A stretch of 64,000 bases of DNA from Rhodothermales bacterium (GTDB taxonomy: Bacteria; Bacteroidota; Rhodothermia; Rhodothermales; Bin80). This document shows, one piece after another, positions 1-4,380 of the stretch (its first letter is position 1; the number at the start of each line of letters is the position of its first letter). Made by a program: the position numbers and the translations under genes. The notes below the pieces were generated by a model, which made no database searches, had not been told where the DNA came from, and saw nothing but the letters and a program-made list of their open reading frames with translations. The stretch covers positions 2,978,810 through 3,042,809 of the forward strand of contig OX638318.1 in NCBI GenBank assembly GCA_951812585.1, in the 5' to 3' direction.

Positions 1-907
1 GCACATCGTGGACATAGTCCATGTCCTTAAGGAGCTCCCGACGCCGTTCTCGCGCAGGTCCGAAGTAATCCAGCATCATCGCAATGAGCTCTGCTTTGGC
101 GTGTCCGTACCCATAACCCCCGGCGAGGTAGGCCTCCCGAAGCTCTGCCTGCTTTTCCGGCGTGGCGAACAGCTTAATCAGCGCAAACACGTTGTCCTTG
201 TCTGGTTTTTTCGGTGCCTCCAGGGGTGTGGAATCTGTCTTGATGCGCTTGACCCGGCGCGTCAGCGCGGCTTTTTCTTCGAAGATGCCAATTGCATTGT
301 TGTAACTCTTGGACATCTTGCGCCCGTCAATGCCAGGCACGGTGGCAACGCTATCCAGGATGTACGCCGAGGGGATGGGAAAATGCTCTCCGAACCGGTT
401 GTTGAAGCGCTGCGCTATGTCGCGCGTCATCTCGATGTGCTGCCGCTGATCCGCGCCAACGGGTACCAGCGTTCCCCCATAGATCAGGATGTCCGCTGCC
501 TGCAGCACGGGATAGTTGAACAGGCCGCAGTTTGGGCTGAGTCCCTGCACGACCTTGTCCTTGTAGGCGACACCCTTTTCGAGATGCGACACGGGGGTCA
601 GGCAAAAGAAGATCCATGTCAGCTCATTCAGTAGGGGCACATCACTTTGCACGAAGAGGTTGGATCGGTCCGGGTCAAATCCAAGCGCGAGGTACGTGAC
701 GGCCGCGTCCAGCGTATGGGCATGGAGCTGCGCAGCATCCTGCACGGTGGTCATCGCATGGTAGTTCACGATGAAGTAGTACGACGGATGCGCGTGCTGC
801 AATGCAATATGCTGCCGGATCGCTCCGAAGTAATTGCCAATGTGGAGTGCTCCAGACGACTGGATGCCGGAAACCACCACGGTCTTGCCGGGCGCAAAAG
901 GTGCCAT
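1..907 (-). CDS. trpS: Tryptophan--tRNA ligase (partial; C-terminus lies beyond the window start)
   Basis: Absent from the ORF track because it runs off the edge. My translation from the ATG at 907-905 gives MAPFAPGKTVVVSGIQSSGALHIGNYFGAI..., with a HIGH-type motif (LHIGNY), VPVGADQRQH and the KMSKS motif (GRKMSKS). The track ORF 8..634(+) is its antisense shadow. Confidence 0.9.
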   Translation of the reverse strand, partial: MAPFAPGKTVVVSGIQSSGALHIGNYFGAIRQHIALQHAHPSYYFIVNYHAMTTVQDAAQLHAHTLDAAVTYLALGFDPDRSNLFVQSDVPLLNELTWIFFCLTPVSHLEKGVAYKDKVVQGLSPNCGLFNYPVLQAADILIYGGTLVPVGADQRQHIEMTRDIAQRFNNRFGEHFPIPSAYILDSVATVPGIDGRKMSKSYNNAIGIFEEKAALTRRVKRIKTDSTPLEAPKKPDKDNVFALIKLFATPEKQAELREAYLAGGYGYGHAKAELIAMMLDYFGPARERRRELLKDMDYVHDV

Positions 908-911
908 AGGT

Positions 912-1385
912 TCAGGATATGGTTCTTTGCCGGCGCGCCTGTCCCAGCACAAAGGCCAGCCGCTCTGCGCTGCTCTCCGCGCAACGCCGGAGCACAGCCT
1001 CGGTACGCATCTGGTGCTCAATAGTGCGCTCTGCGTGCAGAGCTTCCCCCAGTGCTTGCTCTTCGGCGAGCAGTACCGCCCAGGTGCCCGTCACCGGCGG
1101 CGCATCAACTGGACGGTCGGCGCCGGAATAGGCCACGCCGCCGCAGCTGAAGATGGTCTCGGCAAGCTTGCCCATATCAGTCCTTGCCTTGCGTTGCAGC
1201 TGCGCCAGCTCCTCTGCATACGCCGCTTCCGGGGCGGCCAGGCTGACTACTTGGTCGTACAAGCGACTCAGGACGACATGCTGCGCCATCAGCGGGTTCA
1301 GGCGGGCAATGGTTTCCTGCCGTGAAATGGTGCGCCCGGCCCAACCCTTCTTGAGCAGCACCGACTTGATTTCTTTGGTTCGCAT
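912..1385 (-). CDS. Hypothetical protein (helical, Ala/Glu/Leu-rich; no motif recognised)
   Basis: 157-aa ORF with an ATG start. Its stop is 4 nt before the trpS ATG and its start is 34 nt after the trpE stop, so it sits in the same-strand trpE-trpS array. Confidence 0.5.
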   Translation of the reverse strand: MRTKEIKSVLLKKGWAGRTISRQETIARLNPLMAQHVVLSRLYDQVVSLAAPEAAYAEELAQLQRKARTDMGKLAETIFSCGGVAYSGADRPVDAPPVTGTWAVLLAEEQALGEALHAERTIEHQMRTEAVLRRCAESSAERLAFVLGQARRQRTIS

Positions 1386-1419
1386 AAGCGGTATGGGTTG
1401 AATGGCGCGAATATAGCAA

Positions 1420-2907
1420 CTAGAGCAATCCTTCGGCTGCGACCAGGAGCGCCTTCTTGAGTGCTTCGGCCTTGTTCTCTGTCTCCTCGTACTCGCGCTG
1501 GGGGTCGCTGTCGGCTACGATGCCCGCACCAGCCTGAATGAAGACCTTGCTGTCCCGCACCACCATCGTGCGAATGGCGATACAGGTGTCCATGTTGCCG
1601 GAAAAGTCGATGTAGCCTACCGCCCCTGCATAGACCCCCCGTTTGCTGGGCTCGAGCAAGTCTATGATTTCCATGGCACGCACCTTGGGGGCACCACTGA
1701 CAGTGCCCGCAGGAAAACAGGCGCGCAGCACGTCCAGTGCTTCGCAGTGCGGATCAATACTGCCGCTGATAGTGCTGACGATGTGCATGACATGCGAGTA
1801 GCGCTCGATATACGCATAGCGGTCCACCTGCACGGTGCCCATGCTGCAGATACGCCCCAGGTCGTTGCGGCCCAGGTCCACCAGCATGAGATGCTCCGCG
1901 CACTCCTTCGGATCACGCAGCAATTCGTCGGCCAGGCGTTCATCCTCCGCTGCGTCCCTGCCTCTGGGGCGTGTCCCTGCAATGGGCAGCAGCTGTGCCC
2001 GTCCCTCTTCCACGCGCACGAGGACTTCCGGTGACGATCCGATCAGCGTCACCTCGCCAAAATCCAGATAGAACAGGTAGGGCGAAGGATTGACTTGGCG
2101 CAATGCGCGGTACAGGTTGAAAGGGTCCCCCTCAAATGCAAGAGAAAACCGCTGGGAAAGTACGACCTGAAAGATGTCTCCCTCGTAAATCAGACGCTTG
2201 GCCTCCTCCACGGCCGCCTCAAAAGTAGCGCGCTCAAAGTTTGACTGCATCTGACCCGGACTCAGCGACACCTGCTGCGGTGTCCTGATCGGCGACTGCA
2301 GTTCGGCCTCCAGCTGCGTCAGTCGGGCCTGGGCTTCCAGGTATCGTGCCTTGAGCGGGGTCGTTGCATCGACGAATACGCTGGTCATCAGCACCATCTG
2401 GTGCTTGACTCGATCAAAGGCAGCCACGGTGTCATAGAAGCACCAGATAGCGTCTGGAATGCCGAGATCGTCCGGCGGGATGGAAGGCAGGTGTTCGATA
2501 AGCCGAACGCCATCGTACCCCATAAAGCCTACCGCGCCGCATCGAAGGCGGGGAAGGCCCGGCACCGGCACTTCCGTGTATGCGGCCAAATAGTGCTGAA
2601 GCACAGCAAAGATGTCGCCGCTGGGCGCGCCGGGCTGAGGCTGACCGTCGCCATCCAGCACCTCCACGGAGGCCCCATGCGCTCGAATGACGCGATAAGG
2701 GTTTTTGCCCAGAAATGAATAGCGCGCAAGGTGCTCTCCGCCTTCTACACTTTCCAGCAGGAACGCGTGGTGCCCCGTTTGTCGAAGGGCCAAGTGCGCT
2801 GAAACGGGCGTCAAGAGATCAGCGCTGAGTCGCCTGTACAGTGGTAACACAATAGGCCACTGTCCACGATGCGATTCAGCCAGCGCTCTAAAGACTCTGA
2901 AGGTCAT
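1420..2907 (-). CDS. trpE: Anthranilate synthase component I
   Basis: Motifs LLESVEGGE, GDIFQVVLSQRF, LLPIAGTRPRG, LMLVDLGRNDLGR, SGAPKVRAMEII and GGAVGYIDFSGNMDTCIAIRT. The track start at 2919 is TTG, so the in-frame ATG at 2907 (MTFRVFRAL...) is preferred. Confidence 0.93.
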   Translation of the reverse strand: MTFRVFRALAESHRGQWPIVLPLYRRLSADLLTPVSAHLALRQTGHHAFLLESVEGGEHLARYSFLGKNPYRVIRAHGASVEVLDGDGQPQPGAPSGDIFAVLQHYLAAYTEVPVPGLPRLRCGAVGFMGYDGVRLIEHLPSIPPDDLGIPDAIWCFYDTVAAFDRVKHQMVLMTSVFVDATTPLKARYLEAQARLTQLEAELQSPIRTPQQVSLSPGQMQSNFERATFEAAVEEAKRLIYEGDIFQVVLSQRFSLAFEGDPFNLYRALRQVNPSPYLFYLDFGEVTLIGSSPEVLVRVEEGRAQLLPIAGTRPRGRDAAEDERLADELLRDPKECAEHLMLVDLGRNDLGRICSMGTVQVDRYAYIERYSHVMHIVSTISGSIDPHCEALDVLRACFPAGTVSGAPKVRAMEIIDLLEPSKRGVYAGAVGYIDFSGNMDTCIAIRTMVVRDSKVFIQAGAGIVADSDPQREYEETENKAEALKKALLVAAEGLL

Positions 2908-2917
2908 CGTTGATATC

Positions 2918-2950
2918 AAAAAGAAAGCCCACTGCTTGTGGCAGCGGGCT
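2918..2950 (-). terminator. Intrinsic-terminator-like hairpin plus U-run in the trpE 5' leader (candidate attenuator)
   Basis: The minus-strand RNA reads AGCCCGCUGC-CACAA-GCAGUGGGCU, a 10-bp stem with one G.U pair, followed by UUCUUUUU. It ends 10 nt before the trpE ATG. No upstream gene on this strand needs terminating. Confidence 0.6.
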
Positions 2951-3186
2951 TACCCTGGCATACGAGACGCATGCAATGTGCTAGGGGCCCACTGCCGGGT
3001 GCAGCCGCCGCCAATAGCCGCGCCGCAAGTCCCAGGAAGCATGTGTCAAGGCCCGTTGCATCGCAATGCCATCACGTTAAAAGCGTATACGCACACCGTG
3101 CGGAGTGGTGCCCTGCCGCCAAATCGGAACCTGCTTGCTATCTTGGCATAATCCGTGCCCGCCACGAATTTGTCCAACCCGATCCT

Positions 3187-4380
3187 ATGGCAATGAAGCG
3201 TCCGGCTTCTCCTTATCACCGTGCACACGAGCGTGTCCTGCTGGTTCTTGCCGCGGTGGGCATCGCGCTGACGCTTCACCTGTCCTTCTGGTACGGCGAT
3301 ACCGTCGTGGACGACCCGGTTTGCGGTGGTGACAGCGATTGCGCCTCTGTGATAGCGCAAGACCCGACCTTCTTCGGCATATCGAGCACCACATCGGGCT
3401 TCTTGTTCTATGTACTGGTGGCGGTGTTCAGCATGGGCGTCACCTGGGACTGGAATCGGAGGCGTCGCCATTTCAAGGCGGGTCGCCTCGGCCTCGTGTC
3501 GGGTGGCCTGGCATATTCGCTCTTCCTGACGATGTATCAGCTGTTTGCATTGGAGGACTTCTGTGTGCTGTGCTTGGCCTCGTTTGGCTTGGTGTCCGCG
3601 ATGGCCATAACCTTGGTGCTGATGCTCCGAAAGCCCCCGGCGGTGCATAGGAGACGGGATGTGCAGGCGAATGCACGGAATTTTCACTACATTGTAGCTG
3701 CCGCTGTCGCAGCGGTCGTGCTGCTGGACTACATGGCGTATCGCGACAGTGCTGCGGCATCTGGCGTCGCGGCGACGCAGGCGGCGGTGTACAACCCAGC
3801 CCTTTGCCGATACGATGACGCGTTGCCGCGCTACGACAACCTGGACCAGTTCATCAGCGATTCGGATCCGTTCACCGGCCCGGTATCGGCGCCGGTGACC
3901 ATAGTAGAGTTCATCGATCCCAATTGTCAATTCTGCAAGTCGCAGCATCCAGTCATGCTCCGTTTGGCGGCAGCCTACCCGGATCGGGTGCGCATTGTGT
4001 ACAAGCTGGTGCCGCTTTTGGCGGGGAACTTGCTTTTTTCACTGGACGAAGTGATGGCCCTCTGGCTAGCCAATGAAGAGGGGCGGTATGAGGAAATGAT
4101 CGAGGGAGTGTTTGCGGCCCAGAATCCTCAGGGCCTTTCGGTCGCGCAGCTGGTGGATATTGCAGAGGAAGCAGGTTTGAATCCGCGCGCGTTTCGGCAG
4201 CAGCTGGAAAGTCGGCGCCTGGAACCCAGAGCGCGCAGAATACGCCGCGTATTTGATCAGATGGGACTCAATGCTGTGCCCGCCATCCTGATCAGTGGCC
4301 GCAAGGTGCACTCCGATGATCGCTCGTTTGGCTGTCTGAGCCACCTTGTGGAGCAGGAACTCGCTAATCTCGTCCCGTGA
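3187..4380 (+). CDS. Vitamin K epoxide reductase (VKOR)-family membrane domain fused to a DsbA/thioredoxin-like domain
   Basis: The N-terminal half is multi-pass hydrophobic with Cys pairs (CGGDSDC, CVLC). The C-terminal half has a thioredoxin-fold CxxC (PNCQFC). The track ORF starts at 2938, but that extension is Arg/Ala-rich junk, so ATG 3187 ([10 protein letters not shown]...) is preferred. Confidence 0.75.

Follow-up and report, generated by a model that had tools for sequence, protein, structure and literature searches.

Among the described leaders, trpL of Escherichia coli (the Yanofsky model; Trp_leader, RF00513) offers the closest logic to the locus analysed here. In both, a short uORF with Trp codons lies ahead of trpE, a terminator (3:4) and an antiterminator (2:3) compete through a shared strand, the position of the ribosome decides between them, and charged tRNA-Trp is the signal. 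The differences from trpL are equally clear. We found no similarity to it in sequence or by covariance model (CM) at positions 2600-3500 of the window, by which we mean the whole 64-kb stretch of Rhodothermales DNA under analysis. There is no conserved 1:2 anti-antiterminator or pause hairpin and thus no conserved segment 1, so that the default of the untranslated leader would be read-through, unlike the super-attenuation of E. coli. The uORF of the relatives is apparently leaderless or nearly so and has no Shine-Dalgarno sequence, the Trp codons of the window are non-tandem, and the operon includes trpS and orf157. The four-segment E. coli type is not matched, and the Rhodothermia leader is a three-segment variant.

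The Bacteroid-trp RNA motif combines a leader containing Trp codons with a terminator. Catalogued as RF01692 (Weinberg et al. 2010, PMC2864571), it shares with the present leader the phylum-level neighbourhood, a cis-regulatory role and a position ahead of genes for Trp biosynthesis. The RF01692 CM recovered its control hit in Bacteroides thetaiotaomicron but, at E<=1, nothing in 41 related genomes; Bacteroid-trp and the leader described by our model R1 (below) are separate sequence families. Control of a tRNA ligase by a leader-peptide attenuator of the cognate amino acid is found in E. coli pheST/pheM, and attenuators of trpS2 and leuS have been predicted in Streptomyces (PMC1262725). Here, trpS is the third gene of the operon and, unlike in those cases, the ligase would be co-transcribed with the whole biosynthetic pathway, in a different lineage. 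Among the papers searched, none describes a trp attenuator in Rhodothermus or Salinibacter. Attenuators in Bacteroidetes/Chlorobi were reportedly predicted by Vitreschak et al. in 2004.

Anatomy of the leader and its operon

The minus-strand hairpin AAGCCCGCUGC-CACAA-GCAGUGGGCUU (2951..2925, 11 bp, G+C-rich) is directly followed by UUUCUUUUU, which ends at 2918 (-), and the trpE ATG at 2907 (-) lies 10 nt past the U-run. A terminator scan of window positions 1-3200 returned 2951..2918 as the sole terminator-like site. Because the neighbour of trpE, a VKOR/DsbA fusion (3187..4380, +), is divergent, the hairpin sits in a 5' leader. Within the 64 kb of the window there are exactly two copies of the 9-mer GCAGTGGGC, lying 60 nt apart on one strand (2927-2935 and 2987-2995). 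Two copies per 64 kb are unremarkable by themselves, being reached in 37 of 100 shuffles; the striking point is that both lie within one 69-nt stretch. What is decisive against chance is the conservation and covariation of the leader in the alignments of relatives. A regular expression for the segment 2-3-4 design matched the trpE leader and nothing else in the genome. An earlier sequence-only reading of the locus had described the terminator, the U-run, the repeated 9-mer, a 30-codon uORF and the divergent neighbour, all of which we recovered in place. The leader comprises the following features, from 5' to 3' on the minus strand.

2981..3061 (-): trpL-like leader peptide uORF, 26 codons plus UAG, MQRALTHASWDLRRGYWRRLHPAVGP (ORF list and codon table)
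3032..3034 (-): Trp codon W10, accessory (codon table)
3011..3013 (-): Trp codon W17, control codon; the next two codons are CGG CGG, against UGG UGG in the consensus (aligned to the UGGUGGUGG consensus)
2987..2996 (-): segment 2, 5' strand of the antiterminator, GGCAGUGGGC, read as codons (P)AVG; pairs over 10 bp with 2949..2940
2958..2974 (-): small spacer hairpin GCAUGCG-UCU-CGUAUGC inside the antiterminator loop, appearing in folds of the window
2940..2951 (-): segment 3, shared by both helices as the 5' arm of the terminator and the 3' strand of the antiterminator
2925..2935 (-): segment 4, 3' arm of the terminator, GCAGUGGGCUU
2918..2926 (-): U-run of the intrinsic terminator, UUUCUUUUU

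The spacer hairpin is probably incidental because it is not conserved in relatives.

The uORF 3061..2981 (-) is homologous in frame to the Trp-rich uORFs of relatives, which end ...AVG... and in which the repeat is read GCA-GUG-GGC (Ala-Val-Gly). Its control codon W17 lies 17 nt before segment 2, the corresponding distance in relatives being 8-19 nt and mostly 13-17 nt, and its UAG (2983-2981) lies 3 nt beyond segment 2. The distance from ATG 3061 to segment 2, 66 nt, is equal in the two relatives L002 and L003. Extra Trp codons 3-7 codons ahead of the main cluster, comparable to W10, are present in several relatives too. Taken alone, an open 26-codon frame with two Trp codons in DNA of 68% GC is statistically unremarkable.

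A second uORF, 3042..2950 (-), has 30 codons with one Trp codon, which lies inside the repeat (ORF list). The sequence-only reading had started from this frame, judged the geometry unlike the classical leader-peptide model and left the sensor open. That judgement does not hold: the frame is the +1 frame, in which relatives conserve no ORF with a start codon, and we rejected it as the sensor. Its Trp codon (CAG-TGG-GCC) is there because the repeat, that is, the segment 2 sequence itself, forces such a codon. Read in the frame 3061..2981, the geometry is classical. In the correct frame, textbook trp attenuation logic removes the apparent mystery; the mechanism itself is a textbook one, and the leader is ordinary once the right frame is read.

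The operon headed by the leader has nine genes, trpE-orf157-trpS-trpGDCFBA, of which three reach into the window.

1420..2907 (-): trpE, anthranilate synthase component I, first structural gene (Pfam; TIGR00564, 563.7 bits)
912..1385 (-): orf157, conserved hypothetical, between trpE and trpS
1..907 (-), running off the left window edge: trpS, tryptophan--tRNA ligase (TIGR00233, 254 bits; full protein 332 aa)

The gaps are 34 nt between trpE and orf157 and 4 nt between orf157 and trpS, and the scan showed no terminator-like site within trpE-orf157-trpS. In the genome to the left of the window, trpG overlaps the trpS stop and is followed by trpD, trpC, trpF, trpB and trpA, with overlapping or abutting ends; the array continues beyond the window as C1:2973617-2981716 (-), and an apparent lack of trpG/D/C/B/A in the window is an artefact of its edge. 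The order trpE-orf157-trpS is conserved across the order Rhodothermales. Orf157 is syntenic in nearly all Rhodothermales loci examined and carries the invariant motifs KKGWAGRTISR, ETxFSCGG and EHQMRT. Its sequence has no match in Pfam, NCBIfam or PDB, its homologues are all annotated as 'hypothetical', and they are apparently lineage-restricted. The AlphaFold2 model of orf157 is a four-helix bundle (pLDDT 88), for which Foldseek returned Dps and ferritins (TM about 0.70; E 1.6e-4 for Dps), and a ferritin/Dps-like fold is predicted. One leader would thus co-regulate nine genes: the Trp pathway, trpS and a conserved gene of ferritin fold.

Conservation and distribution in relatives

We collected trpE loci from 40 related genomes picked solely by TrpE similarity, together with named Rhodothermales MAGs. 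Three elements recur in most relatives: a terminator matching the window's in sequence type (GCCCRCUGC-loop-GCAGUGGGC-U run), an upstream copy of its 3' arm, and a short uORF with tandem Trp codons that runs through this copy, for example MTSVTPAHSTRTAWWWWTMTRAVGQ..., MRNAVLHTAHFFGFWWWSSPGAVRR and MCDTAGNIAHVTQSTWWRSSLQAVGATP, the last two shown up to their stop codons. Homologous uORFs in 25 relatives contain between WW and WWWW; in most of them 8-19 nt separate the last Trp codon from segment 2, and the stop is found at -2 to +32 nt past segment 2. In 19 of the 25 leaders the 40 nt preceding segment 2 contain TGGTGG, compared with 1.3% of background 40-nt windows from the same loci, an enrichment whose formal P value is inflated by kinship, although the flanking sequence is poorly conserved (mean column identity 44%).

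The sequence-only reading had proposed an attenuator in the 5' leader in which the repeated 9-mer makes terminator and antiterminator mutually exclusive; it had named beforehand, as checks, an alignment of relatives' trpE leaders for covariation and the conservation of the three-repeat arrangement. The arrangement is conserved in relatives, and the alignments bear out the proposal, with both helices conserved and covarying, as listed here by helix and alignment.

3:4, MAFFT, 25 leaders: 89% of cells paired versus 34-54% slid; 23 cells changed on both sides; covariation score reached by 0/500 shuffles
2:3, MAFFT, 25 leaders: 80% paired versus 32-52% slid; 11 changed on both sides; 5/500 shuffles
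2:3, 18 cleaner sequences: 91.7% paired versus 31-58% slid; 8 changed on both sides; 0/500 shuffles
2:3, 30 model hits across the order: 94.2% paired versus 32-56% slid; 24 changed on both sides; 0/500 shuffles; the model behind this alignment encodes the terminator alone, so these counts are not fitted to the 2:3 helix
3:4, 30 model hits across the order: 95.7% paired versus 36-58% slid; 19 changed on both sides; 0/500 shuffles

At one position all three strands switch together, A->G in segment 2, U->C in segment 3 and A->G in segment 4, which is what alternate pairing of segments 2 and 4 with segment 3 predicts, and which may represent a single event, as its five sequences are very similar. 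More distant leaders keep the design with other helix sequences (GCCCGUUAC/GUGACGGGC, with GAACGGGUA as segment 2). Class-level relatives retain a WWW uORF and translate segment 2 in another frame, as N-S-S-G-H; being read in different frames, segment 2 is therefore conserved at the RNA level.

Across the order, model R1, whose seed included the window, had hits in 101 of 151 sampled genomes, which cover 54 of 73 genera and 22 of 27 families. It also matched a neighbouring part of the class (21 of 22 in f30 and 2 of 2 in f28), and outside the class it gave no more than three weak matches in a phylum sample. Among the best 30 hits, 28 precede trpE by 4-119 nt and have Trp-rich uORFs, and two lie before trpS. 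Model R2 was built from 23 sequences, excluding the window and its nearest relatives, L002 and L003. It found the window at 3019..2921 (-) with 44.0 bits (E 2.1e-10) as the only significant hit in 64 kb, its source alignment having been made with R1, whose seed had the window. In the R2 alignment the window reads UAU-UGG-CGG-CGG against the consensus uuc-UGG-UGG-UGG. A second R1 hit in the window's own genome, at 1619908-1620016, was set aside as an ordinary terminator at the 3' end of a gene. These matches show the leader to be a class-wide cis-regulatory RNA that is undetected by any Rfam model. The gain for annotation is a ready covariance model together with a rule for calling the leader peptide.

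The sequence-only reading had also pointed out that the leader would couple Trp synthesis to trpS, and this is supported by trpS lying inside the operon and by two relatives of genus g30, L135 and L136, in which the R1 hit is directly upstream of trpS. There, the Trp leader (…LWWTSPQTVGRSCA…; L135:1501-1607 and L136:1501-1613) was seen about 47 nt upstream of trpS and not of trpE, and in this genus the attenuator would directly control the tRNA ligase gene.

The leader is not universal in the lineage. In the same-genus MAG Plut_88872 (L004/L031), we noted about 110 nt upstream of trpE a terminator-like hairpin, a 7-U run and a segment-2-like GCATGGGGC. In place of a Trp uORF, this locus has a Trp-free one of 35 codons, which begins within segment 2 and whose TGA overlaps the trpE ATG. 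Perhaps the leader has been rewired or lost in this MAG. Genus g12 (11 genomes: L016, L018-L026 and L028) and L008 showed no leader, terminator or Trp uORF upstream of trpE, and R1 matched 0 of the 11 g12 genomes. The trpE-orf157-trpS synteny is mostly kept in g12 and L008 despite the absence of the leader. Loss of the element therefore happens in this lineage.

Promoter region and peculiarities of the window

In 20 of 25 relatives, the motif TTGC-N19-21-TAnnTT(T)G ends in a box starting 12-15 nt before the uORF start. This Bacteroidota-type promoter motif was seen 45 nt upstream of the uORF starts in L002-L051. Boxes of the TAnnTTTG type lie at -12..-5 from the transcription start site (TSS) in Flavobacterium (PMC9723704). 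Given this spacing, the leader uORF of the relatives is probably leaderless, or has a 5' UTR of at most 3 nt. It would add an example of ribosome-mediated attenuation that lacks a Shine-Dalgarno sequence and is probably leaderless.

The window differs from this order-wide pattern, in which the leader carries W-W(-W). Its own copy, with Y-W-R-R, an extra upstream AUG and a weak promoter box, represents the degenerate end of the range. Two features upstream of the uORF are relevant here.

3080..3087 (-): candidate sigma-A '-7' box TACGCTTT, a weak match with 4/6 specified positions of TAnnTTTG
3046..3072 (-): out-of-frame mini-ORF MALRCNGP plus stop, from a window-specific extra AUG (read from the sequence)

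Inspection by eye showed no TTGC at the spacing expected from the '-7' box, which is itself imperfect and precedes the uORF ATG by 26 nt. A scan for sigma-70-type promoters gave one weak site (3176..3148), not above shuffle expectation, and the promoter and transcription start of the window are putative. Extra bases upstream of the uORF supply the AUG at 3072; it precedes the uORF start by 11 nt and begins an ORF of 8 codons that ends before the Trp codons. At the control position one Trp codon is left (UGG CGG CGG vs UGG UGG UGG), in addition to W10; L002 likewise has a single Trp codon there. With a weak promoter box and an out-of-frame AUG, translation of the Trp uORF is not assured. The window copy might serve as a natural single-Trp-codon variant for asking how many control codons the switch needs.

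Separately, a CA(T/G)GTTCC block was noticed in the trpE/VKOR intergenic region, at about 3126-3133 in the window and at the same position in L002-L005 and L007. It may be a transcription-factor site.

Proposed mechanism and rival explanations

We consider it likely that the leader works in this genome as a transcription attenuator in which a ribosome translating the leader peptide senses charged tRNA-Trp; the Trp response in vivo is what we infer from the conserved design. A short transcript would begin ahead of the 26-codon uORF 3061..2981 (-). With Trp-tRNA in short supply, the ribosome would stall at W17 (or W10) with its leading edge short of segment 2 (2996..2987); segment 3 (2949..2940), once transcribed, would pair with segment 2, no terminator would form, and transcription would read through into trpE. 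When Trp-tRNA is plentiful, the ribosome would reach the UAG (2983..2981) and cover segment 2, segment 3 would pair with segment 4 (2935..2925), and the U-run would end transcription 10 nt before the trpE AUG.

Folding is consistent with this scheme. The sequence-only reading had suggested comparing the energies of the two conformers: in isolation, the 2:3 hairpin has -32.8 kcal/mol and the terminator (3:4) hairpin -19.3 kcal/mol. The full-length minimum free energy (MFE) structure (-73.3) combines 1:2 with 3:4, and the structure with 2:3 forced has -67.1. The 1:2 pairing in this MFE is probably incidental because a conserved segment 1 is no better than shuffles: the search for an upstream partner of segment 2 gave a mean z of -0.5, and z -0.52 for the window. 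Likewise, a conserved hairpin in the segment 2-3 spacer, as a pause signal or aptamer, was absent in relatives (mean z -0.33). A ribosome covers roughly -15 to +12 nt around its A-site codon, and the covered RNA was removed accordingly in masked folds. With the ribosome at the stop, just segments 3 and 4 are unmasked and the terminator forms (-23.2 kcal/mol). If RNA polymerase has only just cleared segment 3, the 2:3 helix forms over its full 10 bp, whether the ribosome is at W17, at W10 or absent. The masked folds thus switch with ribosome position, and footprint arithmetic suggests that a stalled ribosome frees segment 2 whereas a ribosome at the stop masks it.

The same peculiarities of the window could be read as decay. 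The leader would then descend from an order-wide Trp attenuator and no longer sense Trp here, leaving the operon largely constitutive, which we regard as unlikely; equally unlikely is the cause that would be given for it, a Trp uORF that is poorly translated or a lone Trp codon that is too weak, with the antiterminator as default in a leader without segment 1. The reduction of tandem Trp codons to UGG CGG CGG, the weak -7 box and the AUG at 3072, whose 8-codon ORF stops before the Trp codons, all fit decay, as does the formation of 2:3 without a ribosome once segment 3 emerges. So do the loss of the Trp uORF in the same-genus MAG and of the whole element in g12 and L008. Yet segments 2, 3 and 4 are perfectly intact, with helices of 10 bp and 11 bp, and the uORF keeps the frame and geometry of L002/L003, with 66 nt between ATG and segment 2, 17 nt between W17 and segment 2, and the stop at +3 nt. 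Moreover, the single Trp codon at the control position is shared with L002, and Trp is, as general knowledge has it, rare enough that a single codon can be rate-limiting.

A non-classical sensor, be it the 30-codon uORF 3042..2950, a protein, a tRNA or a ligand, seems extremely improbable. That uORF exists, with its UAA abutting the terminator stem, and no Rfam family was matched: in a scan of window positions 2600-3500 with all 4227 families at E<=10, there was no match to Trp_leader (RF00513), Bacteroid-trp (RF01692), T-box or riboswitch families. The sole hit, RF02278, was dismissed as a chance, terminator-like match (14.9 bits vs a gathering score of 50). Against such a sensor, the +1 frame lacks conservation as an ORF with a start codon, and its Trp codon is dictated by segment 2; class-level relatives read segment 2 in yet another frame and retain the WWW uORF. 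The missing T-box and riboswitch matches point the same way, as does a segment 2-3 spacer without conserved aptamer-like structure. The gene for TRAP (mtrB, PF02081) is absent from the genome, the B. subtilis control having been matched, and a TrpR homologue is absent from it as well.

An added layer would be compatible with ribosome-mediated attenuation: the terminated leader RNA of about 140 nt, or the peptide, might act in trans, or His7 might aid stalling. We hold this to be very improbable here. In Sinorhizobium, the rnTrpL RNA and the peTrpL peptide act in trans (PMC6614838, PMC7298713), which provides a precedent, and the His codon (CAT A) conserved at codon ~7 across the class is otherwise unexplained. 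Set against this, the His conservation may lie at the RNA or DNA level or be inherited, and the test for 1:2 pairing was negative. A more far-reaching version would make the Rhodothermia trp leader a distinct three-segment design, with a leaderless or near-leaderless uORF, a read-through default and the class-wide His codon (CAU-A) at ~7. The His would mark a nascent-peptide stalling aid or a trans-acting peptide or RNA as in Sinorhizobium, and sensing in the window would depend on one control Trp codon (UGG CGG CGG). Taken as a whole, this version is decidedly doubtful.

The His codon is also an observation in its own right. It is found at codon ~7 of leader peptides across the class and is nearly always CAT followed by A (CATAC/CATAT), in the contexts …AHT…, …VHT… and …AHM… in relatives and as T-H-A at codon 7 of the window (3043-3041). 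A search for a pairing partner of the conserved CAT A found none, and the use of CAT for His7 in GC-rich genomes hints at a constraint at the RNA or DNA level.
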